62,059 nt of DNA. Source: Candidatus Falkowbacteria bacterium (GTDB lineage: Bacteria > Patescibacteriota > Patescibacteriia > UBA11705). The stretch is from the NCBI GenBank assembly GCA_003518055.1, contig DOZJ01000002.1, forward strand, positions 378,304 to 440,362, read 5' to 3'. A model generated the notes under the pieces. It saw nothing but the letters and a program-made list of their open reading frames with translations, was not told the DNA's origin and searched no databases. A program made the position numbers and the translations under genes. Of this stretch, positions 3,136 through 54,558 are shown piece after piece; the stretch's first letter is position 1, and each line of letters starts with the position of its first letter.

Positions 3136-3981
3136 ATGATGAAAGCCATCACGTTGAGTCACGAGGATCGTGTTTATGAAGTAGCAAAGCTGGTCGGTGA
3201 GGACAGCCACGGCCGATACCGTTTGTATCGTTGTCGTGTCCCCGGAGTCGATCGAGAATATCTGCTTCAGATTGCTTCGGAGTTTAAACACAATGGTTCG
3301 TTGGATAAAGCGGCTTTTTTCCTTCGGGAATTGAAGCGCGTGGCTGATGAACTTGAAGCAGAATATAACCGGCTTGAACCGGGGAAGATGTTGAATTACC
3401 ATCTGTCATTCCCTGAACTGGTTGATAGTTTTGTGTGCGAGGAGCAGGGAAATCGCCGGGTCAATGTTCTGGCTTTCCGAAATGTTGACGTTATCAAGCG
3501 GCTGGTGCCGATTGCTAATATTGTTGAAATTGATGCGCTTCGGTGCGATCTGCGCAGCAGCGCTTGGGTCATGGGCAAGCTGTTGAAAATTCTGGTCCTA
3601 ACCCAGAGCATGAAGGTAGTCATCAATCAGGTTAATGGCGCCAATACTCTGCTCGATGCTGATCAGCATTATGTCGTGATCTTTGATTGGGCCGACTCGG
3701 AAATCCAGTCGGGTGAAATTCTTGCGGCCGTCGCCAGACGAGAAATCGGCAACGCCGCGTTCACCGTGATTGACCTCCTTGGAGGTGATTACAAGACGCG
3801 AACATTCCCCGAAGACGAGAGTGAATCCGCTGCCTATGCCGAGTACACGGCTTTTCTGCTGGGAATGGCTGACGGCCATCACAAGGATGCGGCGAAAGCG
3901 CACCGAGATTTTTACGCCGTCGTTGACAAGTATTGGTCGCGTGAGTTCTATCCTTTTACCACACACCCGCGATCCCGTTAA
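3136..3981 (+). CDS. Protein-kinase-fold-like protein, probably a pseudokinase (281 aa)
   Basis: ORF track. WVMGKLLKILVLTQSMKVVINQVNGANTLLDADQHYVVIFDWADS aligns by eye to the kinase catalytic-loop to DFG region (..vvHrDlkpeNiLld....vkliDFg.s). Q replaces the catalytic Asp and FDW replaces DFG. Confidence 0.6.
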   Translation: MMKAITLSHEDRVYEVAKLVGEDSHGRYRLYRCRVPGVDREYLLQIASEFKHNGSLDKAAFFLRELKRVADELEAEYNRLEPGKMLNYHLSFPELVDSFVCEEQGNRRVNVLAFRNVDVIKRLVPIANIVEIDALRCDLRSSAWVMGKLLKILVLTQSMKVVINQVNGANTLLDADQHYVVIFDWADSEIQSGEILAAVARREIGNAAFTVIDLLGGDYKTRTFPEDESESAAYAEYTAFLLGMADGHHKDAAKAHRDFYAVVDKYWSREFYPFTTHPRSR

Positions 3982-4001
3982 ATCGGGAAGGGGAGGGCAA
4001 G

Positions 4002-5171
4002 ATGGGACTTCGGACTCTAACCAGAGATGCCTATACTAATGTTAAATCAAGTGCTACTTTGGGTGGAACCAAAAGTGCTACTCATGCGGCTGAAGAAAGG
4101 GTTCATCGCGGTGAAGGTCTGGATCCGCTAGTTGATCCAAAGGGGCCGCCGCATCTCGGACCGGTTCGCATGTCTTTGCCTAGATATGAGAAAGTGGGAA
4201 ATCTTTGGCGTTTGACCGTCGGCATTCCTATGGCGGTAGAAAAATTGCTTGATACTACTGGGTCAATGGATAACAATGTTAATCTGGCTTTTGAAAACTG
4301 TCAGAAAGAATATGATCTCTATAGAGCTGGTGCTGTTCCTGTCCTTCATCGATATGATGTTCAGATGGCCACAGGTGCCTTCGGTGATGTTGAGGATTTT
4401 ACGAGGCTTGGTTTGCCCTTCTATTGCCGATCGCAGTTTGAGATGGATGAAAAGATCGCGGTTCAGATGTCTCTCATGGTCGCGGCCAAGAAGGGCTGGG
4501 GCAACGGCAAGGAAGACCCCCAGTTTGGCTTGTTTGGCGCTGCCTATTTGACTCAGGCGAGAATCAATGCCTACGGCCTGAAGTCTTATCACTTTACAGT
4601 GTCTGACGAACCCGTTGTGCCCGTAATTAATTATGACTGGCTGAAGCATGTCTTCGGTGATGATGTTTTGACCCATTGCGCGAGAATCGGATACCAGATG
4701 AGCGCCAATAAACTTCCCGATACGGCTCAGGTGGTCAAAGATTTACAGACAAGGGCACACGCATTTTTCCTCCTCGTAGATAATAGTCACTACGTAATTG
4801 AACAGTGGAAGGCTCTCTATGGTTCAGATCATTTCGTTTTTCTCCCGAATGGCACTACGGAGTATATCCATTTTGTGAACGCATGCATTATCGGTTTGAC
4901 CGAAGGTGTTCTTGATCTTCAAACCGCAAGGGAATTTTTGTTGGAGCATAAGCTTTCTCGTCCGGAAGCTGATAGTGTTGTTCGTGCTGTGGCCCATATT
5001 CCTCTTGGAGCTCAGGCTCAGTATCCGAACTTCGATAATCTGCCCAAGGCCGGCGATCTCTTCCGCGAGAAGACTGATCTCTGGCCGGTGGAACCGAGTG
5101 AAGTTGAGAATTCGGAAGCTACCGATGAGACTGCTGATGGCGAAAAGCCCGGCGGACCTGTCTGGCTCTGA
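4002..5171 (+). CDS. von Willebrand factor A (vWA)-like protein (389 aa)
   Basis: ORF track. GGGGAGGG SD. LLDTTGSMDNN resembles the vWA MIDAS motif DxSGSM (TerY-like). 20-nt gap from the upstream gene. Confidence 0.6.
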   Translation: MGLRTLTRDAYTNVKSSATLGGTKSATHAAEERVHRGEGLDPLVDPKGPPHLGPVRMSLPRYEKVGNLWRLTVGIPMAVEKLLDTTGSMDNNVNLAFENCQKEYDLYRAGAVPVLHRYDVQMATGAFGDVEDFTRLGLPFYCRSQFEMDEKIAVQMSLMVAAKKGWGNGKEDPQFGLFGAAYLTQARINAYGLKSYHFTVSDEPVVPVINYDWLKHVFGDDVLTHCARIGYQMSANKLPDTAQVVKDLQTRAHAFFLLVDNSHYVIEQWKALYGSDHFVFLPNGTTEYIHFVNACIIGLTEGVLDLQTAREFLLEHKLSRPEADSVVRAVAHIPLGAQAQYPNFDNLPKAGDLFREKTDLWPVEPSEVENSEATDETADGEKPGGPVWL

Positions 5172-5213
5172 TCTTTAATCCCTGAAATTAACCCCGAACT
5201 GAGGGAGGTGCGC

Positions 5214-6599
5214 ATGACCCGAAAGGTTTATGTGGTCACCGACCTCGGTCCGGGGGATGGTGGCAAGGGCGGAGTCGTTCACAAGATCGCTTCGATGCTG
5301 AAAGCGTTTCTGATTATCAAAGTGGGAGGCGCCCAAGGCAGCCATGGTGTCCGCACTTCGCGAGGTGAAAGCTTTGCGTTCAGTCAGTGGGGCTGTGGCA
5401 CGTTCGAGGGCATTCCGACTCACTTGTCACCTCGATTTATCGTTTCAATTGAAGGATTGTTGAATGAGGCCGAAGCCTTGCGCTATGGCCATGGCGTTCA
5501 CGATCCATTCAGTCTGCTGACGGTTGATCATCTGGCGCTCTGCTCAATTCCGTACCACGGTATTTCCTCGCGGCTAAAAGAATTGGCGCGCGGAAAAAAT
5601 CCGAGAGGTACGATTGGTACGGGAGTCGGCGAAGCTTTTCGCTATGCCCAAAGCCATCCGGAATTAAGTTTGAGAGTCAACGATTTGGCCCGGCCTGATA
5701 TGCGTGAGTTTCTGGCCGCAGTCCGCGATCAGATTACTCACGATCTCGAGCCAGTCATTCAGAGTGGATTTTTTGAAGAAGATGATCCGTTTGTCGAAGA
5801 AAATGTTCAGAAATTATTTGATGATGAGTTCCTGGATTTCATTACCGCTCGGGCCTATGCCTTGGCGCGAAATCTACAGGTAGTGGATCGCGATTATTTA
5901 CGGCAAATGTTCCTGCGTACTAATCGCCCGGCTGTAGTTGAAAGTTCACATGGAGTTCTGACTGATCACTACTGCGGTTTTGAACCGCATACTAGTGCCA
6001 TTCGGACTCTTCCAATGTTCGCGCATTCTATGCTTCGAGACGCTGATTTTGATGGTCAAATTGTCAATATCGGCGTGCATCGCGCATATGAAATCCGCCA
6101 CGGCGCTGGACCAATGCCAACGGCTGATGACGCCATGGGTGAAACTCTTTTGCCCGGCAGTCATAAAGAAGAAAACCGCTGGCAGGGAAAAGTTCGCGTC
6201 GGTCCGCTCGATTTGGTGCTCATGCGCTACGCGATAGCGTGCTGCGGGGGTCCCAAAGCTTTTGACGGACTGGCGATTACTTGGTTTGATCAGGTCCATG
6301 AAAATGGTGACTGGCAAATTTGTGATCATTACAAAAACGCGAAAGACAGAGAGTTTTTCACCCCTGATGGCGAGCTCAAAGTCAGTGTTGGCGACAACAT
6401 TGAACGGCTCATTTATCAGGAAGGTCTTGGGCAACAGCTTCAAGGTTGTATTCCCGAGATCAGTTCGATCCCTGTTCCCTTGAACGCGAACCGCGACGAG
6501 CTCTTCGAGCTCTGCGCCCGCGTTCTGCAGGAAAGACTTTCCGTCCCGGTGAGAATGGTCTCGCTGGGACCGACCGAAACCGACAAGGTCTGCAAGTAA
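5214..6599 (+). CDS. Divergent adenylosuccinate synthetase (PurA/AdSS)-family protein (461 aa)
   Basis: ORF track (5208). ATG at 5214 follows GAGGGAGG. Serial PurA motif matches: DLGPGDGGKGG vs GDEGKGK; GGAQGSHGV vs GGHNAGHT; RGTIGTGVGEAF vs TTGRGIGPAY; VESSHGVLTD...PHTSA vs LEGAQGTLLD...PFVTSS; HGAGPMPT vs GAGPFPTE. Confidence 0.7.
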   Translation: MTRKVYVVTDLGPGDGGKGGVVHKIASMLKAFLIIKVGGAQGSHGVRTSRGESFAFSQWGCGTFEGIPTHLSPRFIVSIEGLLNEAEALRYGHGVHDPFSLLTVDHLALCSIPYHGISSRLKELARGKNPRGTIGTGVGEAFRYAQSHPELSLRVNDLARPDMREFLAAVRDQITHDLEPVIQSGFFEEDDPFVEENVQKLFDDEFLDFITARAYALARNLQVVDRDYLRQMFLRTNRPAVVESSHGVLTDHYCGFEPHTSAIRTLPMFAHSMLRDADFDGQIVNIGVHRAYEIRHGAGPMPTADDAMGETLLPGSHKEENRWQGKVRVGPLDLVLMRYAIACCGGPKAFDGLAITWFDQVHENGDWQICDHYKNAKDREFFTPDGELKVSVGDNIERLIYQEGLGQQLQGCIPEISSIPVPLNANRDELFELCARVLQERLSVPVRMVSLGPTETDKVCK

Positions 6600-6622
6600 C
6601 CCCACAGCACAGGAAGAAGCCA

Positions 6623-7894
6623 ATGACAGATGTGAAAGTTCCCGTGACTCCCGTGTCTCCGACCGCTACTCCGACTCCTGCTTCGTCTCCCGAACCCGTG
6701 GTCGCTCCGCTGCCCGTCGTCGACGAGCTCATCGCACGGCTGAACACGCTCGGCGTCGACCCCGACACGATCAGCAAGATCAAGTCCGAGCTCGGTGCCT
6801 CCAGCCTCGACGACTTGCCGAACCTGACCGAGGAAGATCTCCTCAAGGTCGGCATGAAGGCGCTCCCTGCAAGGAAGCTGGTCCTGGCGCTGAAGCCGGC
6901 AGTCCCGACGGCGGTCGAAGTCGGATCCATGATGGGATCCAGTTCGGCCGATCTCGTCAACCTGCTGGCACCAGTTCCTGAGAGCCGCTCCATGCTCGAC
7001 GGCCTCAGCCTCGTCCAGATCGGGAAGATCGAGCGGACGGTCGTGTCGAACGGCATTCGCGCCGCTCTCGCGAGTCGTGCCGGCCTCTTCGATGTGCCGG
7101 CCTATCTGCTCGAGCTCATGAACGACTTCGTCACCAACCGCATGGAAGAGCCTGCGCCGCAGTCCTACTACGATCTGGAAGACGAGGTTGCGAAGCAGGA
7201 CAACGCCGAGGTTCTGCGCCTGCTCAAGGTCAGCGGTCGCTACACGACGAAGGAACGCAAGCATGAGTTCCTCGGTCGGATCGGTCGCCTCTGGCAGCCG
7301 GCCAAGACCTTCCAGGAGCAGCTCCAGGCCTGGTACGAGGCCTATCTCAAGGTCGCCGGCAGTCCCGCGGCCATGATGGCGGCGATGACAAGCCTCGCTG
7401 GTGGGGGCCGATCCGTTCTGCCGGTCGTCACCTCGACGCCCGACACCTCGCCTCTGCACGACGGTGCTCAGCTCGTGATCCAGTCGATCAATGCAGCATT
7501 CGCCGGACGGAACATCCCCGCGGCCATGGCGCTGGCCTTCGATGCCGAACGCATCAACGCGTTCCTCACGAGCGCGGACGTCATCCGCTATACAGGTTCG
7601 GTCAATCGCGAGGAGCTCGCACGTACGCTGGGCAAGCGGCTCGGCAGTACGCTGGTGACTCCCGACTACCGTCGGCTCGAGAACGTGCTCGTTCAGTTCG
7701 TACTGAGCGTGTACGAGATCGACGCTCGCGCACCGCTCGGTACGCCCCAGGAGCTGCAGTACATCATGGCGCTGTACATGCTCGGCCAGAACATCCCGTG
7801 GGATCGCCTTTTCGATGGCGTGACCAACGAGGGAGGCAGGGCCAGCAACAAGCTCACCGGCATCGGCGGCCGGGGCAAGCGCGACGACCTCTAG
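6623..7894 (+). CDS. Very G+C-rich hypothetical protein with P/T-rich N-terminus and SAM (sterile-alpha-motif)-like segment (423 aa)
   Basis: ORF track frame 6446..7894. I start at ATG 6623, preceded by AGGAAG. Third codon positions are almost all G/C. NLTEEDLLKVGMKALPARKLVLALK resembles the SAM-domain C-terminal consensus. The antisense 488-aa ORF is judged a shadow. Confidence 0.6.
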   Translation: MTDVKVPVTPVSPTATPTPASSPEPVVAPLPVVDELIARLNTLGVDPDTISKIKSELGASSLDDLPNLTEEDLLKVGMKALPARKLVLALKPAVPTAVEVGSMMGSSSADLVNLLAPVPESRSMLDGLSLVQIGKIERTVVSNGIRAALASRAGLFDVPAYLLELMNDFVTNRMEEPAPQSYYDLEDEVAKQDNAEVLRLLKVSGRYTTKERKHEFLGRIGRLWQPAKTFQEQLQAWYEAYLKVAGSPAAMMAAMTSLAGGGRSVLPVVTSTPDTSPLHDGAQLVIQSINAAFAGRNIPAAMALAFDAERINAFLTSADVIRYTGSVNREELARTLGKRLGSTLVTPDYRRLENVLVQFVLSVYEIDARAPLGTPQELQYIMALYMLGQNIPWDRLFDGVTNEGGRASNKLTGIGGRGKRDDL

Positions 7895-7934
7895 TCGTGA
7901 CTCCAAGTTCTTTTTCTGAATAAGTTATAATTTT

Positions 7935-7966
7935 CCGAGTAATTAATAGTTACTCGGTTTTTTTTT
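7935..7966 (+). terminator. Strong intrinsic terminator ending the 3136-7894 operon
   Basis: CCGAGTAA (7935-7942) pairs with TTACTCGG (7950-7957), followed by nine Ts. Confidence 0.8.
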
Positions 7967-8079: not shown

Positions 8080-8210
8080 CCAAGATTTGTAAAAAAAAAG
8101 ACACCAACTGATATTGGTGCTTATTTTTTTTGCAAATTCACTTATCTCGCTTGCCCGCCGAAGTCTCTTGACCGCCGAAATCTTGATGAAGGCGGTTGAC
8201 GCAGGTGGGC

Positions 8211-10088
8211 TTATCTTGCTTTCTCGCTTGAAACTATTTGAGGCAAAAACACTCGACTCGCGTACAGCCTCGTCGCCGTGAGACGATATCCTGAATCCCA
8301 AAATCTGCTATGCCCATCGATTAAGGACGCATGCGGGGTTTTGATTCCTCCTCGCCGCGGATAAAACTTAGCGAAACCTCTGTGCATCAGTCGGTATTGC
8401 ACCGAGTCGCGTTCCAATTCCTCGATATAAATTTTTCGCGCTTTGCGATTATGTAGAATTCTCCCGTTATCGTAGAAATAAGGAACCAGTAACGCATTTC
8501 GCAGTTCGTGGATTGCGGATTCTGTACCCACCCACACTGCGCCAAATAGCACGTGAGTCCAATGACTTTCTCCAAGAAGGGGACTGCTATCATCAAAGTC
8601 GTGAACTCTCAACGCATCATTGTCGTCCTTATCGAGCCAGAACATGACCACTTCATTTATGATTTTATTCTGAGCAAAATAGGTGTTCAGCAGTTCCTTG
8701 ATTGTTTCTTTATACCTAACATCAGTGTTTTGCCTGACGAAAATCGCCGCATCGCAGTCAGATGTTTTGTCTCCATAACCCTTGAGACGAGAGCCATAAA
8801 TCAAGAATACCGGGTAGATATAGGATGAAAGTTCAGCATCTGTCTCGATAATAACTTTAATAATCTTCCTGATTTCTGCGATTTCCGGTTGTAGAAAGCG
8901 TAGGTTCGCTGAGAATGGCCCTGATAAAGCCGGCACGGTTAATCCAAGCAATTCGAGGCTTGTATCTGTGACAATCTTCAAACTATGAAGTCGAAAGAAG
9001 GCCTTTGTTAAAGCATCACGGACTGCTGAGAATTCACATTTCCACAGTGCGAGCAGTTGCTCTTTATAGTTCGTATAAAGACTGGTCGCTCTGATTAAAT
9101 CCGTTTCAGCCGAAGCTTCAACCGCTTTTCGTACACCGTCAATGAACGCCAACTGGCATTCTACTTTTGTTCCGAGATCTGCAAACAATACAGCTTCATC
9201 GAGATCGAGAGTCCCGCTAAGAATCGCATTCTTGATTCCATTTCCGGTCTTTTCAATCGCCTGACGCTTGCGATCCTTGATGAGCCACGCGATCCGCTTT
9301 TCGAGGATATCGCCGAAATCATCACGCTCAATGGCGAAAAACTGCTCAGCTAATCTTTCTTGAATAATTTTTACGGATACAGGTGGTGCTTCTTCGTCAG
9401 ATGGTTCCAAAATCACATCATGCGATTTAATGAATCCCATGTCAGCCAAGACCGGCAAAGTCTCTTCAATGCTCTTCCTTAATGTTTCTTCCTCGCATTG
9501 TTCCAGCAGGTGAAAAACCGCACCAACCGTTAAAAAACCTTTTTCCACCAATTTCGGAATCAGATGCGCGGCCTTGACTACTCGCGGCAAATCATTGACA
9601 CGCTTTTCCACATCCATGACATCGCCGTCAACAAAGTTGGCGCGGACGTCAAGCATTGAAAGCAAATTATTCCAGGTGGTCATATAGGCAATCCGGAAAC
9701 GCGTGATTTCCAAGCGCAATTTCTCTTCCGCTGATTTCCAGTTAACATCAGGCAGAAACTCAAACGGCAGATACAGAATAATTCGCTGATAATCAGTTGA
9801 ATCTTCGAGTAAATCACTCAAAGAAGCGTACATCTCCGCGACCGTTATTTCATCGAGAAAGCCATCGTGAACAGCTTGTTCGAGTTCAATGCCAGGTTTT
9901 GGCAGCCGTGAAATAACCGCATCCAGCCGTTCATTCAGTTTTCTTCGCCAGACTAGCTCAGTCTGAAATTCGCGGTTGCTCGCTATATTATCCGGCCACA
10001 ATTTTTTGGCTAATTCCGGCCTTGAAAACAGCTCAACCACGGGCGGTACGATTATAATATCTCCGGTAGTATCTCCCATGTATTTCAT
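8211..10088 (-). CDS. Large protein with C-terminal Pol-beta-superfamily nucleotidyltransferase motif (625 aa)
   Basis: ORF track (to 10118). I start at MKYMGD (10088), preceded by AAGGAG. YGSRLKGYGDKTSDCDAAIFV fits G-S-x3-G-x5-S-D-x-D. The long helical N-terminal region is unassigned. Confidence 0.6.
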   Translation of the reverse strand: MKYMGDTTGDIIIVPPVVELFSRPELAKKLWPDNIASNREFQTELVWRRKLNERLDAVISRLPKPGIELEQAVHDGFLDEITVAEMYASLSDLLEDSTDYQRIILYLPFEFLPDVNWKSAEEKLRLEITRFRIAYMTTWNNLLSMLDVRANFVDGDVMDVEKRVNDLPRVVKAAHLIPKLVEKGFLTVGAVFHLLEQCEEETLRKSIEETLPVLADMGFIKSHDVILEPSDEEAPPVSVKIIQERLAEQFFAIERDDFGDILEKRIAWLIKDRKRQAIEKTGNGIKNAILSGTLDLDEAVLFADLGTKVECQLAFIDGVRKAVEASAETDLIRATSLYTNYKEQLLALWKCEFSAVRDALTKAFFRLHSLKIVTDTSLELLGLTVPALSGPFSANLRFLQPEIAEIRKIIKVIIETDAELSSYIYPVFLIYGSRLKGYGDKTSDCDAAIFVRQNTDVRYKETIKELLNTYFAQNKIINEVVMFWLDKDDNDALRVHDFDDSSPLLGESHWTHVLFGAVWVGTESAIHELRNALLVPYFYDNGRILHNRKARKIYIEELERDSVQYRLMHRGFAKFYPRRGGIKTPHASLIDGHSRFWDSGYRLTATRLYASRVFLPQIVSSEKAR

Positions 10089-10350
10089 TGATATCTCCTT
10101 TGACTGTTTTGACTCCATTTTGCTAATTTTAGTCCTCCAAGTTGGCCTGGAATCTTATAACATTTTTTACTTTTTGTCAAGTTTTGCTTATCGTTCCTCA
10201 GGAGCGGTTGCAACTATAAATAATTATAACAAAAAGAATTGTTGCTCAAATCAAAACAATCGAAAAACATTGATTGTTATTTTTAAGTCGAGTTTAACTG
10301 AAATCGGGTTCAGTTCCAAAAACGACAATTATTTGTTATTATTAACTTAT

Positions 10351-11760
10351 ATGAACACCAACGCGAAAAGTAAAACCAAAGACTTTCCCAAACCGGAAAA
10401 GTTTAGACGATTAATCGGTCCCAGTTTTATTATTTTAGCTCTTGGACTCGGCTCAGGCGAGGTGATCTTATGGCCGTATTTGGCTTCAAACTATGGACTT
10501 GGTTTGGTTTGGGGGGCGGTTTTGGGGATCACGTTTCAATTTTTTATCAATACTGAAATTGAACGATACGCCTTGGTCAAGGGCGAAAGCGTTTTTGTCG
10601 GGATTAATAAATTTTGGCGGGGAGCAGCCTATTGGTTTATTTTCTCCACGTTTATTGGCTTTGGTTTACCTGGTATTATTGCCGCCTCCGCCAAAGTAGC
10701 TTCCGCATTATTTGGCTGGGAAGAACATCGTTGGCTGGCTGTGTTATTTTTAGTGTTGATTGGGGTGATTCTATCAGCCGGTAAAACTGTATATGGTTTG
10801 ATGGAAAAATTAACCAAAACCATTATTCTAATCGGAGTTCCTTTTATCTTTGGTTTGGCAGTCTATTTAAGTTCATCCTCTGATTGGTCTGCTTTGGCCA
10901 ACGGCTTTGTCGGTCGCGGCGAGGGCTTTTGGTTTATCGCCCCCGGGATGGCTCTCGCCACTTTTCTGGCGGCGTTTGCATATTCCGGCGCGGGAGGCAA
11001 TCTCAACCTGACTCAGTCGATTTATATCCGGGAAAAAGGTTATGGTATGGGGAAGTATGCCCAAAAAATCGCCGGTCTTTTTACGCAAAAAGAAAAACAC
11101 CAAAAAATTAAATTAGCGGGATATGATTTTGAGCATGATGAAAAAAATATTACGAATTGCTTGACGTGGTGGCGTCAGATTAATCTCGAACATTTGATAG
11201 TTTTCTGGTTTGTCGGGCTGGTGTCGATTGTAATGTTGATGCTTTTGGCCTTTGTTACCACCAATGGGCTAAGCGGCACTGAACAGGGTATAAGTTTTAT
11301 TCTTTTTGAGGCCTCGGTGATTGGTCAATCTGCCATGCCGGCAATGGGAATCGCGTTCTTAATCGTTGTTGTGATCATGTTGTTTCAAACCCAGCTGGGT
11401 GTGATGGATTCAACTTCGAGAATCATGGCGGAGAATTACGCGATAAAGATTTTAGCGAAAAGTAACAATCAAACAATTAATCTGGCCAAAATATATTATG
11501 TCTTTTTATGGCTTCAAATATCATTTGGTATAATCTTGTTTTTATTCAATGTCTCTGAGCCAAAAACATTGTTAGTGCTTGGCGCCGTGATAAATGCTTT
11601 TGCCATGTTGGTTCATGTGCCTTTGGTTGCTTGGCTTAATCACAAATATCTCCCCCGGTTCTGTCGACCGGGGAACGCGCGAAAAATCGTTATGGGTTTA
11701 ATATCGTTGTTTTTATTGTGTTTTTTTATTTTTATAATGATTAATCAATTTTTTGAATAA
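10351..11760 (+). CDS. Polytopic membrane transporter, Nramp/APC-fold-like (469 aa)
   Basis: ORF track frame 9976..11760, starting at MNTNAKSK (10351). GPSFIILALGLGSGEVILWPY resembles Nramp TM1. About 11-12 TM helices. Family assignment is tentative. Confidence 0.55.
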   Translation: MNTNAKSKTKDFPKPEKFRRLIGPSFIILALGLGSGEVILWPYLASNYGLGLVWGAVLGITFQFFINTEIERYALVKGESVFVGINKFWRGAAYWFIFSTFIGFGLPGIIAASAKVASALFGWEEHRWLAVLFLVLIGVILSAGKTVYGLMEKLTKTIILIGVPFIFGLAVYLSSSSDWSALANGFVGRGEGFWFIAPGMALATFLAAFAYSGAGGNLNLTQSIYIREKGYGMGKYAQKIAGLFTQKEKHQKIKLAGYDFEHDEKNITNCLTWWRQINLEHLIVFWFVGLVSIVMLMLLAFVTTNGLSGTEQGISFILFEASVIGQSAMPAMGIAFLIVVVIMLFQTQLGVMDSTSRIMAENYAIKILAKSNNQTINLAKIYYVFLWLQISFGIILFLFNVSEPKTLLVLGAVINAFAMLVHVPLVAWLNHKYLPRFCRPGNARKIVMGLISLFLLCFFIFIMINQFFE

Positions 11761-12896: not shown

Positions 12897-14318
12897 ATGC
12901 GCAAGGTTCTCGCAAGCCTGTTCTTCTCGCTCATGGTGGTCGCCATCATGGGCAACCGTTCGTGCGTGCCGGTCGAGCCGGAGGAGCCGGCCTGCCTGGA
13001 CGACGGCTTCGTCTGCACCGCCGACAGCGAGTGCTGCGGCGGTCTGTGCTGGAATAACCCCGGCGATCCGTTCGCGATCTACGGCGAGTGCCGGAGCACG
13101 AATGACGGCTGGTGCAACACGGACGCAGACTGCCCCGACGGCCAGTTCTGTACGGGGGAGGGTTACTGTCTGGGGGACTTCGGTCCGTGCCAGGTCGAAG
13201 GCCTTGAGGCCTGCGTGCCGGGTGAAAACAAGCATTTCGATTCCTGTGTGGCCGCGCGCAGCGGTGAGCTCCGGCTCGTCCGTAGCCATTGCGGCCGCGA
13301 GAACACTTGTGTGTTCACATCGCAGTCCACTGTCGCTTGTGAGCCGGTTTCGGATCTCGAGGGAGTTCCTTGCGCCGATGACGCGGACTGTGCAGGATCG
13401 CTCTTCTGTGACCACGGTGTGTGCAGTATGCCCTGCACCAATGAGTATGACTGTCAGGAAGGGCAGCTCTGCTACTCATGGACCAACACCTGCCAGTGGC
13501 CGAACAGCGGCGAGTTCTGCAACGTGTCCTCGGATTGTCCGAACTATAGCGGCGACTCCAACCAGTGGCCCCACGGCGGGCAGATCTGCTATCAGGGCCA
13601 TTGCGACTACTACATCTTCGGTCCGTGCGAGGTTGAGAGCCAGATGCTCTGCGCGCCCGAGGACGGTCCGGCCGAATTCTACCGCTGTGTGGTCGAAGAC
13701 GGCACGGAGGTCCTTCACTGGATCCGCGGCACCTGCGGTGCGGCTTATGAGTGCGTCAAGAACTCGGACGGCAACGGACAGTGCATTGCGCCGCAGCCGG
13801 CAGAAAGCTCGGTCCAAGTGTCTCGGCTCATGAGCCAGTCTCAGCTCTACTACGGTGAGAACCAGATGTTCGTCTTCCGTCTTATGATCGTGGCGCTGGA
13901 CGGCTTCGTCGGCGAACACGGAGTGTTGAATGAGCTTTCGTTCAGCATTCAGATGTCGGAGAGGGATTATAGCCGAATTCATTACTGCAAGGTGGTGGAG
14001 TACCAAACCGGCTATATGCTCGACTACAGCGACAACCTCGAGCTGCGGACCTCCGAGACTGGTAGTCAGTACGCTTTGGTCAACTTTCACTTCGAGGGTG
14101 ATGTCCTGCTGCCAGTCGGCGCGTATACTAATCTGGAGCTGAGGTGCTTTGTCGCTTCCGGCGGAGCTCCATACGAGGCCATCCAGACAGGTTTCATCGG
14201 CAGGCTCGGCACATCCCCGGCAGACGCCATCGTGGTCTATGGGGTCGAGAGCGGGGAGCGCCTTTCGGTGTCCCCAACATATTCGGAGGATACCTTGGTA
14301 TCGATCCTGACTCGCTAA
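12897..14318 (+). CDS. Secreted cysteine-rich repeat protein, very G+C-rich (473 aa)
   Basis: ORF track. N-terminal signal-like segment MRKVLASLFFSLMVVAIMG. Repeated modules such as CTADSECCGGLC, CNTDADCPDGQFC, CADDADCAGSLFC, CTNEYDCQEGQLC and CNVSSDCPNY. Alternative-frame and antisense ORFs are judged shadows. Confidence 0.7.
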   Translation: MRKVLASLFFSLMVVAIMGNRSCVPVEPEEPACLDDGFVCTADSECCGGLCWNNPGDPFAIYGECRSTNDGWCNTDADCPDGQFCTGEGYCLGDFGPCQVEGLEACVPGENKHFDSCVAARSGELRLVRSHCGRENTCVFTSQSTVACEPVSDLEGVPCADDADCAGSLFCDHGVCSMPCTNEYDCQEGQLCYSWTNTCQWPNSGEFCNVSSDCPNYSGDSNQWPHGGQICYQGHCDYYIFGPCEVESQMLCAPEDGPAEFYRCVVEDGTEVLHWIRGTCGAAYECVKNSDGNGQCIAPQPAESSVQVSRLMSQSQLYYGENQMFVFRLMIVALDGFVGEHGVLNELSFSIQMSERDYSRIHYCKVVEYQTGYMLDYSDNLELRTSETGSQYALVNFHFEGDVLLPVGAYTNLELRCFVASGGAPYEAIQTGFIGRLGTSPADAIVVYGVESGERLSVSPTYSEDTLVSILTR

Positions 14319-22278: not shown

Positions 22279-23319
22279 CTACAGCTCGCTGCGGCCAAAC
22301 CATTTTTGATTTAGACCACCGGTAATACCGTTTTCTTCCATCAAAAGCAGTGCTCGGTTGATATCCTCGGTAAATGGTGACTCATCTTTCAACGCCAAAC
22401 CATAGTACTGCTTGTCAAAAATGAAATGCAGTGTGGCAAAGCGTCCGGTTTTGTCATTCATTTCCTTGTAAAGCAGACCCGGGGCGTCAAAAACCACTCC
22501 GTCAACCTGCATCGTCGCCAACAGATCAAAGGCGTCCGCCTCTTCCTGCACCAAGACCAGGTCGGCGCCGTACTTCTGCAGCGCGGCCTCACTGGTGGTT
22601 CCAGCCAAGGTCGCAATTTTCTGATCCTTGAGATCGGCGGCACTATGAATAGTCGTGTTGATATCACTGTTAATGATATTGCTGGTGATTTGACCCACCA
22701 TTATAGTGAAAAAAGCGATCCCTGTAATCATCATGATGATGGTGCAGAATTTCCCGAAGGCGGTTTTGGGTGTGATGTCGCCATAACCGACTGTCGCGGA
22801 GGTGACCAAAACAAAATAGCTGGATTCATATGTTCCTCGGAGATAACTACCCATATTCGCTTGGTGTCTTTTTTCCGTTAGATAGAATACGTGAGCCATG
22901 AAAATAACATAAAGCACGAAATACATCACCAAACGACCCACATCCCAGTTGAGTACAGGGCTTTTTTCGTTACGAACCATGACCGTCAAACCGGCGTTGA
23001 AGTAAGGATAGCTGAAATCAAATCTTTGTTCACGGCCATTCGTGACTGAAACGCCGCCGATCATCATGTCAAATTCGCCGCTGATCAAACGATCAAAACG
23101 CTTGTCCCGATCCACCCGAACATATTCAAAATCCACACCGAGGTAATTCCCCAGCTGTTCGAGCAGGTCAATATCATAACCGGTCAATCTACCCGACTTA
23201 TCTTCGATGACAAACGGGGTGTAGGTCGTGTACCCGACGGTCAAGGTTTCTGCCTCGGCCGCACCGCCAAAGAAAAGGCTGATCATCAAAGCTACCAGCA
23301 GGGTCCCGACTGTCTTCAT
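22279..23319 (-). CDS. GluR0-type ligand-gated K+ channel: periplasmic substrate-binding domain interrupted by a two-TM pore (346 aa)
   Basis: ORF track (to 23364). I start at MKTVGT (23319) after AAGGAG. SBP lobe 1 (LTGYDIDLLEQLG...DMMIGGVSVT..R), then TM, then pore helix with TSATVGYGDITP (K+ selectivity filter), then TM, then SBP lobe 2. Confidence 0.7.
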   Translation of the reverse strand: MKTVGTLLVALMISLFFGGAAEAETLTVGYTTYTPFVIEDKSGRLTGYDIDLLEQLGNYLGVDFEYVRVDRDKRFDRLISGEFDMMIGGVSVTNGREQRFDFSYPYFNAGLTVMVRNEKSPVLNWDVGRLVMYFVLYVIFMAHVFYLTEKRHQANMGSYLRGTYESSYFVLVTSATVGYGDITPKTAFGKFCTIIMMITGIAFFTIMVGQITSNIINSDINTTIHSAADLKDQKIATLAGTTSEAALQKYGADLVLVQEEADAFDLLATMQVDGVVFDAPGLLYKEMNDKTGRFATLHFIFDKQYYGLALKDESPFTEDINRALLLMEENGITGGLNQKWFGRSEL

Positions 23320-23549
23320 ATGTCCACTCCTTTGGTGTTTTTGGTTTTGAATGTCAAGGGTCAAAATACTCTATATTCTAGTATAAAAACAACTTTTTGT
23401 CAAGTGTCTGGCGAATGTTAACGGGTAAGGTTATTTATTTACGTAATTTAAGTCCTTTGTAACGTATTGCTGAGTTTGAATAACCAAGTTGATCAAAACT
23501 TGAATTACATTAAAAAAGACCCTGAAGTTTCAGGATCTATTGTTGATAA

Positions 23550-24836: not shown

Positions 24837-25907
24837 TTAACGACGCCGACCGCCGCCTGAGCTGCGGAATCCGCCGCCGCTGCTCCTGCGGGCGCCTCCG
24901 CCGCCCCAGCCGCTGCTTCTCGGCGCTGCCGGTCTGGTCGCAGCCGGCCTGGTGCCGCCGCCGCTCGGGGTTGTATGCCAGCCGGGCTTGGCCGGAGGTG
25001 TCCGTCCAGCCGGTGCCGCTTCGGGCTGCTTGGTGGCGCCAGCGCCGAATCCCGTCGCCTTGCGCTTGGTCTGGTTCGGGTCGCGCGCCTGATAGTCGCG
25101 GGTCGTTCCGGCTCGTCCGGCTACGCCCTGCCCCGGCTTGTTATACTGGGTTGACTTGGCGTACTTGCTCGGCTTCTCTGCCGACTTGATGACCTTCGAG
25201 GTCGGTCGAGTCGTCTTGGAGATCGGCGACACCTGTGTCTTGGTGATCTGCCGACTCGATCGGAACGAATCTCGACGTGAGCTGAGCGCCGGACCGGCAA
25301 AGACCGGTCGCGGCGAGTAGAAGCCCGTCCGATACATCGGTACGTAGTATGGCCGCGGCGAGAACATGTAGCCGAGCAGTAGTCCGGTGGCAAAGCCACT
25401 GCCATGATGGTAGGCCATGGGGTAACTATAATAATAATCATTGTAGCCGTGGACGTGCTGACTGTAGCCGCCAGAGATCACGACCTGATTCGTGGTCGTA
25501 TTCCGCTCGAACTCTACCTGACCGATGGTGACTCCGTCTTCCTCCTTGCCGGTGGATGATGGAATGGCCACGAGGTCGACCAGCCGCTTGATGTCGTTCG
25601 ACTCTGGCAGCTCGCGGAAGACGACATAGTCGATCTTCCCATCCTGATCGATATCGACATTGTTGATTCCGGATTCGCCGTTGACCAGCGTCTCCATCTC
25701 TTCGATGCTCGCGACCTTGTTCTCGCGAATCATGGTCATAAGCGTCTCGAGATCGAAATCATCGGTCTTGACCGAGCCGGTGGTCTCCGTTTCAGTCTGG
25801 GTATACGTCTGATGGCTCGAGTGGGTACTTCGGCCGCAGCCGGCCCCGATAAAGATCATCAGGCTGAGAATAGCAAAAATAGGCAGAAAAACCCTCGGAT
25901 AGCGCAT
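24837..25907 (-). CDS. G+C-rich lipoprotein with DxDxDG Ca-binding-like loop, Tyr-rich segment and R/G/P-rich tail (356 aa)
   Basis: ORF track. AAGGAGG SD. Lipobox-like IGAGC. NNVDIDQDGKIDY. The C-terminus ends ...GGGGARRSSGGGFRSSGGGRRR. Confidence 0.65.
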   Translation of the reverse strand: MRYPRVFLPIFAILSLMIFIGAGCGRSTHSSHQTYTQTETETTGSVKTDDFDLETLMTMIRENKVASIEEMETLVNGESGINNVDIDQDGKIDYVVFRELPESNDIKRLVDLVAIPSSTGKEEDGVTIGQVEFERNTTTNQVVISGGYSQHVHGYNDYYYSYPMAYHHGSGFATGLLLGYMFSPRPYYVPMYRTGFYSPRPVFAGPALSSRRDSFRSSRQITKTQVSPISKTTRPTSKVIKSAEKPSKYAKSTQYNKPGQGVAGRAGTTRDYQARDPNQTKRKATGFGAGATKQPEAAPAGRTPPAKPGWHTTPSGGGTRPAATRPAAPRSSGWGGGGARRSSGGGFRSSGGGRRR

Positions 25908-26113: not shown

Positions 26114-26959
26114 GTGGGGATGGCTGAGACAGTTTTAAACGCTCCAACTCAGGAATCATATGTTCTGAAACGCGCTCTGACCAATCCGGTTACCATAGTG
26201 TCATTTATTCTTGGTGTCTTGTGTGGCATTCTGCTGGCTTCGGTTGATTTTAGTACGCTGTTTCTGGTTGGCTTGATTGTGTTTGTTGTGGTTGCGTTCG
26301 GATCCTTTATTTTGGATGTTACCACGCGCAAGGTATTTTTCTTGGAAGATTGGCTGAAGATCGTCAAGACGCAGATGAAGCAGCGACAAAACCGTGATGT
26401 TCATGATCTACGTCTTGAAATTGCCGAGTGTGGTCGGATTCCCGGAACCACCACCCGCGTAGTGGCGGCCAATAATCAATTTCGAGTGGTCGAGCGGGTT
26501 TTTGGCAAGATTGATCAAGTCCTGGCGCATAAATACAAGACCGGAGAAATTAAGTATGGCAAGTTTTTGGCCGCGGCCGAAGGTTTGTCAAAAGCGATTC
26601 TGTCACATTTGAGACAGATTGTTACTCTGCTCCAGAGTCTGGGAGCGCTGCAGCCAAACGACAAGAGACTGGAATTTTTAGAGCGGCTCACCAGCCAGAC
26701 ACCGCAATTTGAGGCGGAAAGAGATCGTCTCCGGCAGCAGGCCGAAAGAAAGACCAGGGTTTATATCGAGGTGGATCGCATTATCACTGAAAATGAAACC
26801 GCCATTGGGGCGCTTGAAACCATGCTCGACAAGATCGCCTCAACTCCCACTGATATGGTTAGTGCTGCTGACTTTGCGGATTTACTCAATCAAGTCGCTG
26901 ATATTTCTAACCGTCTCGACACCACCAAGCATGAGGAGCGTACCGATGACAATGGCTGA
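26114..26959 (+). CDS. xpaC: XpaC-like membrane/coiled-coil protein (281 aa)
   Basis: Two N-terminal TM helices then a long helical region. Sits immediately upstream of, and overlapping, a TelA-family gene, as in the B. subtilis xpaC-yaaN pair. Assignment is by architecture and synteny only. Confidence 0.45.
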   Translation: MGMAETVLNAPTQESYVLKRALTNPVTIVSFILGVLCGILLASVDFSTLFLVGLIVFVVVAFGSFILDVTTRKVFFLEDWLKIVKTQMKQRQNRDVHDLRLEIAECGRIPGTTTRVVAANNQFRVVERVFGKIDQVLAHKYKTGEIKYGKFLAAAEGLSKAILSHLRQIVTLLQSLGALQPNDKRLEFLERLTSQTPQFEAERDRLRQQAERKTRVYIEVDRIITENETAIGALETMLDKIASTPTDMVSAADFADLLNQVADISNRLDTTKHEERTDDNG

Positions 26960-28217
26960 ACAGCAGAGTCAGGCTTTGATGATTCCTGAAGATGTCCCAG
27001 CCGCGCGGCCGCTTATGGTTGCGACAAGAGATGATGAGGCGCTGAAGCGTGATCTCGGCTTGGCGACCGCTGCTGATCTGCGGACTGGTCCGACAGACAT
27101 GGTGCTTTTTGAAAAGGCTGGCAGTATCGCGCAGCAGCTTCTGACGGTTGATCTGACGGATCCGGCCGTCGGCCAGACCCAGCGCAAGATGATGGAATCC
27201 TTTGGCCAGACTGCCGAGCGCAAGTGCCACAAGTCTTCAGGGATGCTCAGCACACCGCTTGGCAAGATGAAGGGGCTCGATGGCCAGGATTCCGGTCTTG
27301 CATCTTCACTTTCGTCTCTGACAGCCAAGGTTCAGGATTTGAATCCGGGCAAGTACAAGCTTGATCCCTCTAAGTACGGCTTGCTTCGGCGATTCTTCAT
27401 CCGTTTGACGCTGATGGCTCCGCCTCTTCGGACTTATCTCGCCAAGTTCCAGTCTGGTGAGATGGCTATCAATCTAATCATTGATGCCCTTGAAAGTGGC
27501 AAGGAAAAGCTTGAGAGGAATAATGATGAACTTGAGACCGAGCAGACTGAGATGCGGCGCGCCACCTTCGAGTTGCAGCAGGCCATCAAGCTCGGTCATG
27601 CTCTCGATAAGCATTTGACCAATGTCCATGATTCCATTAATGCTTCTGCTTCAGAGGATGAGCGGCTCAAGAAGCGCTACGTGGCTGAGGAGCTCCTATT
27701 CCCGCTGCGTCAGCGCATCGAGGATCTCCAGCAGCTTCTGGCAGTCAATCAGATGGGTGTGATTGCCACTGAAGTACTGATGAAAAATAATCGGGAACTC
27801 ATCCGCGGTGTCAATCGCGCCATCAAGGTTACGACCCGGGCACTTCGCATCGCCGTCATGCTCAGTGTGGGGCTTCATGACCAGCAGTCAGTGTTTGCTC
27901 AGACCAGCGCAATCAATGATACCACGAATGAGCTGCTTGTTCAGGATGCGGCACAGTTGCGGACGCAGGGCGTCGCGATTCACAAGCAGGCGGCCAGCGC
28001 CATGCTCAACATCGAAATGTTGAAGCGGGCGATGGAAGATACCATGATGGCCTTTGATGAGATTTCTCAGTTCCGTCAGGAAGCCCTGCCCAAGATGCGC
28101 GCTGACATCGATGCTTTGGAGGAGCTCACTACCGGCGCTGACAACAAGATCCGTGAAATGGAACGGGGCAAGGCGGCTCGTCCGATGATCGATCTGGCCG
28201 TTTCCGAAGCGGCCTGA
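26946..28217 (+). CDS. telA: TelA/KlaA-family toxic-anion-resistance protein (423 aa)
   Basis: ORF track frame 26709..28217. I start at ATG 26946 after GAGGAG (26934-26939), a 14-nt overlap with xpaC. Long helical TelA-like pattern (YLAKFQSGEMAINLIIDALESGKEKLERNNDELETEQTEM...). Confidence 0.7.
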   Translation: MTMAEQQSQALMIPEDVPAARPLMVATRDDEALKRDLGLATAADLRTGPTDMVLFEKAGSIAQQLLTVDLTDPAVGQTQRKMMESFGQTAERKCHKSSGMLSTPLGKMKGLDGQDSGLASSLSSLTAKVQDLNPGKYKLDPSKYGLLRRFFIRLTLMAPPLRTYLAKFQSGEMAINLIIDALESGKEKLERNNDELETEQTEMRRATFELQQAIKLGHALDKHLTNVHDSINASASEDERLKKRYVAEELLFPLRQRIEDLQQLLAVNQMGVIATEVLMKNNRELIRGVNRAIKVTTRALRIAVMLSVGLHDQQSVFAQTSAINDTTNELLVQDAAQLRTQGVAIHKQAASAMLNIEMLKRAMEDTMMAFDEISQFRQEALPKMRADIDALEELTTGADNKIREMERGKAARPMIDLAVSEAA

Positions 28218-52404: not shown

Positions 52405-54558
52405 ATGAGTTCAAAAATTGTTGTTGATGAGATTATGCCCGGTTGCAAAGTGGCCAAAGTGGGTGGCACGGAGGTTATGTTCGGCTGTCCGTCTGAAGTG
52501 TTGAAGCTATTCAGCCGTCAGTCGAGGCAAATGCCCAAGATCATCGTCCTGCCGGATGAGTTTTATCGCTTTGGCGTGATTCAGGCGGCTTTGGAATTTG
52601 TGTTGTACGATTTCTTGTTTGTTCAGGGCCGGTTTTTCGCCGGCGAAAAATTGACAATCGTAAGCACTGAGGAGCAAGTTAACCGGATGGAAGAAATTTT
52701 GGAGTTGACGCTTCTCGGTCCGTCTCGCTGGCAGATGGAGCTTTGGGATATTCCGCCTGACATTATCGAGGATACGGTGAATTTGTCTCATCATTTCGCT
52801 CTCAAGCATCCGGGAACCGATCGGGTGGCGGCCATTGCCGATATGATAAATTTTGTGGCTTTCAACCATGATTTCGCAGAGCCTGATGGTCAAAATATTT
52901 TTATTGGCCACGGTGGCGCGAATATTTTTTCCGTCTCCGATGGTGTCAACAGTGATCGCGTTGATATCAATCTGCATGAAATGCAGGCGCCGCCGATTGA
53001 CATTCCTGTGCCTTTGACTTTGACGCCTCACGCGGTTTTCGGCGCGACGGCTATTAGTCAGTGTACTACCGGTTTTGATCCCAATGGCTACACTTCAGGA
53101 ATTTTGATTCACGTCAACGGCCTGATTATCTCCGCCGATGGTGTGGCTTGGATGAAGCCGCATTTGCAGAATCTGGGGATTAACCCCGCGGAAATTTCCG
53201 CTCATATTATCACGCACATTCATGATGATCACAGCAATATCTTTGACTTGATCGTCAACGGTGAAAAATTTCATCTTTTGGCGGACAAACTGGTTTATCA
53301 CTGCGTCGTGCGCAAAGCGGCGCTGCTACTCAATCTGTCAGAGGATAAAGTCGCTTCGTTTATCCACTGGATTGAATATAAATTAAATAAACCCCTAGAG
53401 TGGTATGGCGCGGTGTTTGAATTCTGGCCCACGGCGCATCCGATTCCGACCCGAGGCTTCAAAGTGACGGTCAGCGGCCATTCGATTATTTACAGCGGCG
53501 ATACGTGTTGGGGGTCTCAGCTCGCGGTCTTGGTTGGTAAAGGCGTGATCAGGGCGGATTTTGCTCAAAAGCTAAACGACGTGCCCAATCAAGACGCTGA
53601 TGTGATTTTTCATGATGCCGGCGGCGGTTTTGTTCATCCCTTGATTCATGAGTTGGCTGCTCTGCCGCCGCAGATTCGCCGTCATATTGTTCCCACTCAC
53701 TTGCCCAAACTGCCCCATGATTTGGTTGGTGTGTTTGAGCTGATTCATACTGGTCAAAACTGGATTTTGCTTCCTCAGAAAAGCTATGAGACCAGCACGT
53801 TTACTCAAATTCGTCGCGCGCCTTTGCTCGTCACTCTGAGCCCTGAATGGCGCAGTGTGATGTTGTCTCAGGGCACGGTTCAAGAATATCCTCCGGGTTA
53901 CATGTTGCTCAGGGAAGGTACTCCGGGTAAAAATTTTTATCTGCTTTTGGGCGGGACGGTTCAAGTATTGCAGGCAAACGAACAGGTGGCTTTGCTGTCA
54001 ACCGGTGATTTCTTTGGCGAGATTTCCTTGATGAGTGGTAGTGTCTGCAACGCTTCGATCATAACCAGAAGCCCGGTCAAAGTACTCGAATTGCCGCGGC
54101 ATATTTTTTTGGCCATGGTTCAAGCTACGGGTTTGGCGGCCAAGCTGGAAAAAATCCACAAAGTCCGTCCGATTTACATGCAGTTCTCATTGATGAAAAA
54201 TTTGCCAGCGGCGGTTCAAAACCGGTTGTTTGAAGTGACAAATATGGAGACTTGGTTGGCGGGTACGGTCATCATTCGTGAGGGTGATGTCGGTGATAAA
54301 GTTTATGGTATCATTGGCGGCCATGCTGAAGTGATTCATCTGGATCTATTGGGAGTAAGGCATAAACTGGCTGATTTGCATCCGGGGCAGATTTTTGGCG
54401 AGATGGCTTTCTTTGGTGATGGCCATCGCACGGCCGATGTGGCGGCGGTGACTGATATGACCGGTTTTTCCATTGATCGGGTCAGTTTTGAAGAAATCAT
54501 TGAAAACGTTCCGATGTTGAAATATGGTCTGGGTAAGCTGGCTGAGAGCCGCAAGTAG
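52405..54558 (+). CDS. Multidomain protein: unknown N-terminal domain, metallo-beta-lactamase-fold hydrolase, and two cyclic-nucleotide-binding domains (717 aa)
   Basis: AAGGAGGA SD. HIITHIHDDHSN (HxHxDH), later AHPIP / SGDT / FHDAGGG. Two CAP_ED-like segments (GDFFGEISLM...ASIIT and GQIFGEMAFFGDGHRTADVAA). Confidence 0.75.
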   Translation: MSSKIVVDEIMPGCKVAKVGGTEVMFGCPSEVLKLFSRQSRQMPKIIVLPDEFYRFGVIQAALEFVLYDFLFVQGRFFAGEKLTIVSTEEQVNRMEEILELTLLGPSRWQMELWDIPPDIIEDTVNLSHHFALKHPGTDRVAAIADMINFVAFNHDFAEPDGQNIFIGHGGANIFSVSDGVNSDRVDINLHEMQAPPIDIPVPLTLTPHAVFGATAISQCTTGFDPNGYTSGILIHVNGLIISADGVAWMKPHLQNLGINPAEISAHIITHIHDDHSNIFDLIVNGEKFHLLADKLVYHCVVRKAALLLNLSEDKVASFIHWIEYKLNKPLEWYGAVFEFWPTAHPIPTRGFKVTVSGHSIIYSGDTCWGSQLAVLVGKGVIRADFAQKLNDVPNQDADVIFHDAGGGFVHPLIHELAALPPQIRRHIVPTHLPKLPHDLVGVFELIHTGQNWILLPQKSYETSTFTQIRRAPLLVTLSPEWRSVMLSQGTVQEYPPGYMLLREGTPGKNFYLLLGGTVQVLQANEQVALLSTGDFFGEISLMSGSVCNASIITRSPVKVLELPRHIFLAMVQATGLAAKLEKIHKVRPIYMQFSLMKNLPAAVQNRLFEVTNMETWLAGTVIIREGDVGDKVYGIIGGHAEVIHLDLLGVRHKLADLHPGQIFGEMAFFGDGHRTADVAAVTDMTGFSIDRVSFEEIIENVPMLKYGLGKLAESRK

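Follow-up and report, generated by a model that had tools for sequence, protein, structure and literature searches.

We identified a gene, g3, at positions 5214-6599 (+ strand) of a 62,059-nucleotide stretch of a Candidatus Falkowbacteria genome (contig DOZJ01000002.1; hereafter the window), whose product belongs to a distinct and very large clade of paralogues of adenylosuccinate synthetase (AdSS, PurA). In every lineage examined, this clade is linked to a gene for a von Willebrand factor A (vWA) protein with a metal-ion-dependent adhesion site (MIDAS), and residue comparisons indicate that the pocket that holds L-aspartate in PurA is rebuilt in its members. On balance, we lean towards reading g3 as the catalytic subunit of a conserved multi-protein module, in which it would act as a retargeted GTP-dependent ligase for a purine 6-oxo group and an amine and not as an enzyme of the purine pathway. 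This reading draws on observations of the fold, the catalytic residues, the changes at the aspartate site, gene linkage, a gene fusion and taxonomic spread.

The g3 frame is free of stops and encodes 461 amino acids (aa). The mechanical open reading frame (ORF) starts at a GTG at 5208; homologues start at the ATG at 5214, as does an identical protein in public gene calls that is annotated as adenylosuccinate synthetase. Residues 14-456 match Pfam PF00709 with 108 bits (cut-off 27; E = 6e-31). When g3 is aligned to the PurA of Yersinia (HMMER) and E. coli (MAFFT), all five motifs are present and in PurA order, each in an altered form: the P-loop GDGGKGG (GDEGKGK in PurA), GGAQGSHGV (GGHNAGHT), TIGTGVGEAF (TGRGIGPAY), ESSHGVLTD...PHTSA (EGAQGTLLD...PYVTSS) and GAGPMPT (GAGPFPT). 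The protein has ~30 extra residues compared with E. coli PurA (432 aa, Met counted). An AlphaFold2 (AF2) model built from 45 sequences reached a mean predicted local distance difference test score (pLDDT) of 92.7 and a predicted template modelling score (pTM) of 0.91, with low confidence only at residues 316-318, which lie in the aspartate loop. In Foldseek searches, the best matches of this model were solved adenylosuccinate synthetases (template modelling score, TM, 0.71-0.78), and the next ranks were archaeal PurA (0.56-0.60) and PurZ/PurZ0/DgsS (0.46-0.58). According to the model, g3 carries the full AdSS fold. Motifs, Pfam match, model and clade residues together mark g3 as a predicted PurA-family GTP-dependent ligase of a non-canonical clade.

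Despite this likeness to PurA (EC 6.3.4.4; E. coli, PDB 1ADE/1CG3), g3 shares only ~21-23% identity with it and falls below the cut-off of every NCBIfam purA equivalog model: TIGR00184 (62.4 bits, cut-off 395.55), NF002223 (68.8, cut-off 402), NF010355 (47.6, cut-off 445), NF010357 (44, cut-off 700) and NF003295 (22.7, cut-off 368). Pairwise BLAST gave g3 58 bits against E. coli PurA and 20 bits against phiVC8 PurZ, compared with 191 for a protein of mycobacteriophage Sebata, 178 for one from Verrucosispora and 212 for a fusion protein (176-212 over the whole set, including two actinobacterial proteins). Judged by these scores, g3 is an orthologue neither of housekeeping purA nor of phage purZ.

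The residues that set the chemistry of PurA are kept in g3. Their roles are those in the published E. coli PurA structures; E. coli PurA numbering is used throughout, and counts are for 136 clade representatives sharing <=50% identity. Within the common GxxGKG P-loop and GAGPxPT motifs and beyond them, g3 retains Gly12, Gly15, Lys16 and Gly17, which bind phosphate in PurA, Asp13 and His41, its catalytic base and acid, and Asp333 and Ser414, which confer guanine specificity. Across the clade, Asp13 is kept in 123/136, Lys16 in 133/136, His41 in 134/136, Asp333 in 136/136 and Ser414 in 120/136. Retention of the residues for catalysis and GTP binding speaks for an active enzyme with PurA chemistry; since fold and catalytic residues are common to both proteins, the chemistry of g3 is presumably GTP-dependent O6-phosphorylation followed by attack of an amine.

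The substrate site is different. Substitutions found across the clade and absent from both PurA and PurZ are N38Q (129/136), V273H (130/136), T300 to W/Y/F (131/136) and T301Q (114/136), and the Arg-rich (RRRR) loop that closes over aspartate has lost one residue. The changed sites fall at the L-aspartate and ribose sites: in PurA, Val273 and the loop of Thr300, Thr301 and Arg303 lie at the former, and Asn38 is a phosphate ligand. On the CPR (candidate phyla radiation) branch, to which the window belongs, Gln224, the ligand of the O6 of inosine monophosphate (IMP) in PurA, is replaced by His in 120/120 members and Lys331 by Trp, whereas Gln224 is kept in clade members outside the CPR, and the phage and actinobacterial ones have His at position 331. 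The signature of the clade, as found in g3, is therefore Gln38, His273 and [WYF]300-Gln301 together with retained Asp13, His41 and Asp333. The distribution of these substitutions indicates that they are fixed in the clade and are not drift, and an aspartate pocket rebuilt in the same way across the clade speaks against conversion of IMP and aspartate to adenylosuccinate.

These results bear on an earlier note, made from the letters of the window, which had described g3 as a highly divergent, unusually long AdSS-family protein with the five PurA motifs, changed substrate contacts and non-purine operon partners; all of this held up, and the changed contacts proved to be clade-invariant. Its description of the P-loop as altered stands for the letters of the motif and fails for its function, as every catalytic and phosphate-binding residue is kept. 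The structure model that it had proposed returned the AdSS fold, and g3 does not cluster inside canonical PurA with conserved substrate residues.

The second line of evidence is gene linkage. More than 900 g3 homologues were found; the best 120 share 58-65% identity, measure 452-493 aa (mostly 458-466) and, where source names are given, come almost all from metagenome-assembled genomes of Patescibacteria/CPR bacteria. Three long CPR contigs share a set of five genes, the PurA-like gene among them, while the outer flanks are unlike each other. The five are g1 (protein-kinase-like), g2 (vWA), g3, g4 (helix-hairpin-helix (HhH)/SAM-like) and, in convergent orientation, g5 (a nucleotidyltransferase, NTase). 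A scan of GTDB species representatives yielded 35 loci, from taxa that include Saccharimonadia, host-associated Nanosyncoccus, rumen Saccharibacteria, Moran-, Wildermuth-, Davies- and Peribacteria and Paceibacterota, and, where a CPR locus had sufficient flanking sequence, tblastn almost always recovered g1-g2-g3-g4 together with the convergent g5. None of the five is as strongly conserved as the PurA-like gene. Gaps of 20-43 nt separate g1-g4 in the window, and the four genes lie between a sigma-70-like promoter candidate at 2836-2864 (+; TTGACA-17-TATGAT, 11/12, a consensus match only) and a terminator-like hairpin with a T-run after g4 at 7935-7957 (+); a second terminator-like hairpin follows g5 at 8101-8120 (-). 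No purine genes are found among the neighbors of g3, which encode kinase-like, vWA and HhH/SAM-like proteins.

The clade extends well beyond the CPR. An exhaustive HMMER search of 1.84 billion representatives returned 1,239 clusters at 50% identity (E <= 1e-30). Among 50,697 phage records, close relatives occurred only in ~200 cluster C mycobacteriophages (full-length identity 33.5%). In phage Sebata, the genes run in the order kinase gp260, hypothetical gp261, small ORF and PurA-like gp263; gp260 resembles g1 (E = 8e-11) and gp261 resembles g2 (E = 6e-6). The protein gp263 itself, a 'PurA-like adenylosuccinate synthetase' of a Bixzunavirus, is a true clade-mate of g3 (E = 4e-60), with the Q38, H273 and W300-Q301 signature and kinase-like and vWA-like genes upstream. 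A search with the phage protein found 4,577 relatives, and proteins of Verrucosispora, Micromonospora, Actinomadura, Thermopolyspora and Herbidospora are 45-47% identical to it. The Verrucosispora member lies on a 6.3 Mb contig, with an adenylosuccinate lyase gene 7.5 kb away. In three independent actinobacterial operons (L042, L043, L046), the genes encode an NrtR-like Nudix/winged-helix-turn-helix (wHTH) regulator, a kinase-like, a vWA-like and a PurA-like protein. In Rhizobium jumbo phages, the kinase is missing and the gene just before the PurA-like one is vWA-like (hhalign probability 99%, E = 2e-18); gp016 of the Rhizobium phage, considered as a kinase-like partner, was rejected because it is not homologous to g1. 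In each of the seven non-CPR loci examined, which come from Actinobacteria, actinophages and one Rhizobium phage, a hidden Markov model (HMM) of the vWA partner matched the gene that immediately precedes the PurA-like one. In contrast, tblastn found neither g4 nor g5 in phages, and their HMMs matched nothing in these actinobacterial or phage loci. The module core of vWA and PurA-like proteins is older and wider than the CPR, and g4 and g5 are, to judge from these searches, CPR-specific additions.

Some details of these loci are recorded here as observations. The NrtR-like regulators have an intact Nudix box, and L043 holds a second Nudix gene. In one saccharimonadial locus (L002), Prs-like, Nudix, phosphoribosyltransferase (PRTase) and Nudix genes follow g5. 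Two kinase-like partners, one actinobacterial (L042, 6937-7911) and one from Sebata (L005, 4607-5680), have an N-terminal J-domain-like HPD segment (a weak Pfam DnaJ match) and HGA in place of HRD in the catalytic loop; this J-like segment of the actinobacterial and mycobacteriophage partners is missing from CPR g1.

A further link comes from two of the representatives returned by the HMMER search, P0399 and P0451 (1,129 and 1,102 aa), which are natural fusions of a PurA-like domain to a full g5-type NTase; their C-terminal half matches g5 of the window with E = 9e-62. These fusions provide a Rosetta-stone link between the PurA-like enzyme and the g5-type NTase. The fusions have a degenerate P-loop, GEETKS, in which Glu takes the place of Asp13.

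The g1 protein (3136-3981, +; 281 aa), conserved in CPR loci, is protein-kinase-like: its profile matches the catalytic-loop region of CK2 in the PDB (E = 2e-5) and g1 matches a PHROG 'kinase' (E = 8e-6). It lacks the Asp of HRD and the Lys of VAIK and is probably a pseudokinase. The g2 protein (4002-5171, +; 389 aa) has no match in Pfam, NCBIfam or PDB sequences; its AF2 model (pLDDT 92, pTM 0.90) matches integrin beta I-like domains in Foldseek (E = 1e-6, probability 1.0), and its MIDAS consists of D84-x-T86-x-S88 and D202, a D-x-T-x-S...D motif that is invariant. It ends in a disordered acidic tail with a C-terminal Trp-Leu in the window and Trp-[LIVM] in 107/120 members. It begins with Met-Gly in 95/120 CPR members, the remainder having short Lys-rich extensions, and in all of 13 divergent vWA partners. 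The g4 protein (6623-7894, +; 423 aa; start from the public gene call), also conserved in CPR loci, has an N-terminus rich in Pro and Thr, an HhH/SAM-like domain and, at its C-terminal end, a helical domain. Its Pfam matches to SAM_TNK/SAM_1 are weak, and its profile found nothing useful in the PDB (RAD51 N-terminal HhH, E = 0.6). The convergent g5 (8211-10118, -; ~625-635 aa) encodes a Pol-beta-superfamily NTase with a G-S...D-x-D motif, a poly(A)-polymerase-like palm and conserved N- and C-terminal helical domains. NTP_transf_2 is matched in 14/19 members and an MTPAP-like palm in 9/19, the profile matches GLD-2 with E = 5e-3, and by these comparisons g5 resembles non-canonical poly(A) polymerases. 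In three loci (L011, L018, L020), the g5 homologue has in-frame stops (in L011, g2 does as well), which may reflect pseudogenes, assembly errors or an alternative genetic code.

The codon usage of the module is itself unusual. GC content at third codon positions (GC3) in almost all CPR lineages is 0.72-0.93 for g4, 0.68-0.88 for g2, 0.56-0.77 for g1 and 0.50-0.62 for g3, well above the 0.27-0.51 of g5 and the flanks, and the overall GC of g1-g4 is likewise raised. The rank g4>g2>g1>g3 holds in unrelated CPR genomes (window 3136-7894; loci L001-L041); in the window, g4 is highest in the operon at 0.81. In L003, GC3 of g4 and g2 exceeds that of the ribosomal protein gene for RpS15 on the same contig and that of PNPase. 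The pattern is in keeping with g4 and g2 being expressed at very high levels and may stem from this; repeated transfer or nucleotide-level selection may also cause it. The window itself derives from groundwater metagenomes. Metagenome runs with the locus were groundwater and soil DNA only, and no RNA runs holding the locus were found. A segment of GC 0.58 at 6440-7906 was suspected to be 16S rRNA and rejected, as Rfam shows only four tRNAs in the window. Long ORFs run along each of its strands (minus, 488 aa; plus, 482 aa) because of the GC3 of g4, and the segment is neither rRNA nor an antisense gene.

We propose the following mechanism. GTP-dependent phosphorylation would activate the 6-oxo group of a purine nucleotide, which could be supplied or carried by the NTase or by partner proteins, and the activated 6-oxopurine nucleotide would then be joined to an amine other than free L-aspartate. 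The vWA protein would serve as an obligate adaptor, regulator or acceptor. In CPR bacteria, g3 would act alongside the pseudokinase-like protein, the HhH/helical protein and the Pol-beta NTase. Both the catalytic activity of g3 and its use of an amine other than aspartate are what we infer from the conserved and changed residues. The occurrence of the paralogue in purine-prototrophic Actinobacteria and in phages, its vWA linkage and the NTase fusion also argue against the adenylosuccinate reaction.

Several points weigh against this mechanism. In the alignment, the aspartate loop could be shifted by one residue, and nowhere else is confidence in the model low. With its catalytic residues, guanine ligands and, outside the CPR, Gln224, the clade matches a working AdSS, and it may still use IMP and GTP; by sequence, an aspartate-like amine would also be compatible. 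Changes at T129, R131 and R143 (g3 has I129 and T131 and has lost R143) are common to PurZ, which still binds a nucleoside monophosphate and aspartate; we had considered them as an argument against a nucleoside-monophosphate substrate and rejected it because phiVC8 PurZ has the same changes. Finally, a complex of g3 with g2 and g5 is suggested by gene order and the fusion only.

A bolder version of this mechanism, which we consider improbable but worth stating, is that g3 couples a purine nucleotide through N6 to a macromolecular amine, with no free metabolite made. Candidate acceptors would be the N-terminal Gly or a Lys of the presumably abundant vWA or HhH partners, or an amine at the end of an RNA on which the fused or adjacent NTase acts. 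The N-terminal Gly of g2 was rejected as a universal nucleophile, as Met-Gly occurs in only 95/120 CPR members, and is left as a speculative option. Lysidine and agmatidine synthases (TilS/TiaS) activate a base carbonyl in a nucleotide-dependent manner, followed by attack of a non-aspartate amine, on a macromolecular substrate. Their folds are unrelated to that of g3, and the likeness is one of chemistry by analogy alone. Hints of an RNA substrate for g3 itself come only from two partners, the HhH protein and the NTase with its likeness to poly(A) polymerases. More broadly, a Pnk or HAD_PNKP gene adjoins the module in two divergent phages, and these RNA-end enzymes, together with CPR g5 and the HhH-containing g4, are a lead that points to RNA. 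Such coupling, if it occurs, would create a novel kind of nucleotide-protein or nucleotide-RNA linkage. In CPR bacteria it would be central to a highly expressed complex found throughout the phylum, and phages would exploit it when they infect.

Among the alternatives to a retargeted ligase, the most conventional is that g3 is a fast-evolving CPR housekeeping AdSS that uses IMP, aspartate and GTP for purine salvage or interconversion, with neighbors that are coincidental or regulatory. The AdSS fold and Pfam match, the retained catalytic Asp/His and GTP ligands and the public annotation are all in line with it, as is the dependence of CPR bacteria on salvaged nucleotides; de novo nucleotide synthesis has been reported missing in 93% of Patescibacteria genomes (bioRxiv 10.64898/2026.06.21.733656). 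However, a true PurA employed in salvage would depend on purB as well, and neither purB nor a second purA lies within the 62 kb window, which is weak evidence. The equivalog scores are 6- to 16-fold under their cut-offs; the changes T300 W/Y, T301 Q, V273 H and Q224 H are invariant rather than drifting; and the five-gene linkage is kept across CPR classes. The clade is moreover a second copy in Actinobacteria and is also present in phages, each time with a vWA gene, and in some organisms it is fused to an NTase. We therefore regard a housekeeping AdSS as unlikely.

Another proposal concerns biological purpose and can coexist with the retargeted ligase: the module may be a conflict system for cell defense or phage counter-defense in NAD+/ADP-ribose or nucleotide-pool warfare, in which the PurA-like enzyme makes, destroys or restores a nucleotide. 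An NrtR-like Nudix/wHTH regulator heads the operon in the three actinobacterial loci, Nudix genes stand beside the module in L043 and L002, and the Rhizobium phage has PRTase-like and cytidylyltransferase genes upstream; these neighbors are a lead that points to ADP-ribose or NAD-type metabolites. The presence of the module in ~200 lytic mycobacteriophages and the combination of pseudokinase, vWA and, in L044, an AAA ATPase, which is typical of such systems, also fit. Yet no module protein of the window is significant in PADLOC-DB v2 (g5 is marginal, PDC-S09, E = 0.0056), and the NrtR-like regulator scores 141 bits against the NCBIfam ADP-ribose-responsive repressor, under the equivalog cut-off of 400. 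The CPR module is syntenic across classes, including host-associated Saccharibacteria, and not patchy, and the codon signature of g1-g4 exceeds that of a ribosomal protein gene, unlike typical defense genes. We give a role in conflict only a small chance.

It has also to be asked whether g3 is an enzyme at all. As a pseudoenzyme, it would bind GTP without catalysis and serve as a switch or scaffold within an abundant structural complex, a notion that the high GC3 of g2 and g4 (suggesting abundant partners), the catalytically dead partner kinase and the degenerate P-loop of the fusion proteins would suit. If the clade were not catalytic, one would hardly expect its catalytic Asp/His and base-contact residues to be nearly invariant in more than 130 divergent representatives, and a pseudoenzyme is very unlikely.

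The earlier note had pointed to phage PurZ (PurZ/PurZ0, N6-succino-2-amino-2'-deoxyadenylate synthase; PDB 6FM1, 7ODX, 7VF6) as a precedent for a retargeted PurA fold. Retargeting is what residue comparisons suggest here too, and the precedent is sound, but PurZ is not the relevant relative. PurZ has ~340 aa, is archaeal-type, uses (d)ATP, keeps the aspartate ligands and sits with datZ/mazZ/dpoZ, features that g3 does not have. At position 13, g3 has Asp and phiVC8 PurZ has Ser, a specificity-determining residue that accommodates the 2-amino group (bioRxiv 10.1101/2025.10.22.683976). The NCBIfam PurZ model NF038379 (cut-off 300) does not match g3 at E <= 0.01 and gives an actinobacterial clade-mate 38 bits. 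A PurZ-type enzyme for 2-aminoadenine (Z) nucleotides is therefore effectively refuted: it shares the superfamily and the label of the phage relatives, but g3 is structurally nearer AdSS (TM 0.77 vs 0.46-0.58 for PurZ), its hosts are cellular genomes, and datZ, mazZ and dpoZ are, unlike in phiVC8, absent from its kinase-like, vWA, HhH and NTase neighbors. RefSeq and PHROGs name Sebata gp263 (L005), RHph_TM30 gp019 (L045) and PHROG 1211 '2-aminooxy adenylosuccinate synthetase', the PurZ name; this label is probably wrong because Asp13 is kept and Z-cluster neighbors are lacking.

Full-text literature searches gave no description of the PurA-like clade, the vWA pairing or the CPR module, and databases name clade proteins 'adenylosuccinate synthetase', 'PurA-like' or '2-aminooxy adenylosuccinate synthetase'. 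Fold and chemistry are familiar from PurA; the novelty would lie in the specificity, the obligate vWA partner and the module. Thousands of genes called 'adenylosuccinate synthetase', or in phages the PurZ product, are probably mis-assigned. This distorts reconstructions of purine metabolism in CPR bacteria, at a time when their nucleotide economy is under active study. Spread over CPR, Actinobacteria and two unrelated groups of large phages, the clade comprises at least 1,239 clusters at 50% identity and represents a sizeable body of uncharacterized biochemistry built on a catalytic scaffold that is well understood. The chemistry is set by fold and catalytic residues, and the question narrows to which oxo-purine and which amine are joined. 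Genetic systems exist for this purpose in M. smegmatis with cluster C phages, in Micromonospora and in tractable Saccharibacteria.

The remainder of the window holds some other features. The mechanical ORF of an Nramp transporter (9976-11760, +, TTG at 9976) shares ~140 nt with the 5' end of g5; the NCBIfam Nramp match begins at residue 148, and the true start is therefore probably further downstream. Two ORFs without a Pfam match, at 12897-14318 (473 aa, GC3 0.77) and 24837-25907 (356 aa, GC3 0.73), have a high GC3 like that of g4. Additionally, the window encodes a GluR0-type ligand-gated ion channel, with a solute-binding domain split by a K+-channel pore (22279-23364, -), a homologue of the toxic-anion resistance protein TelA (26709-28217) and a 717-aa protein with two cyclic-nucleotide-binding domains (52405-54558).

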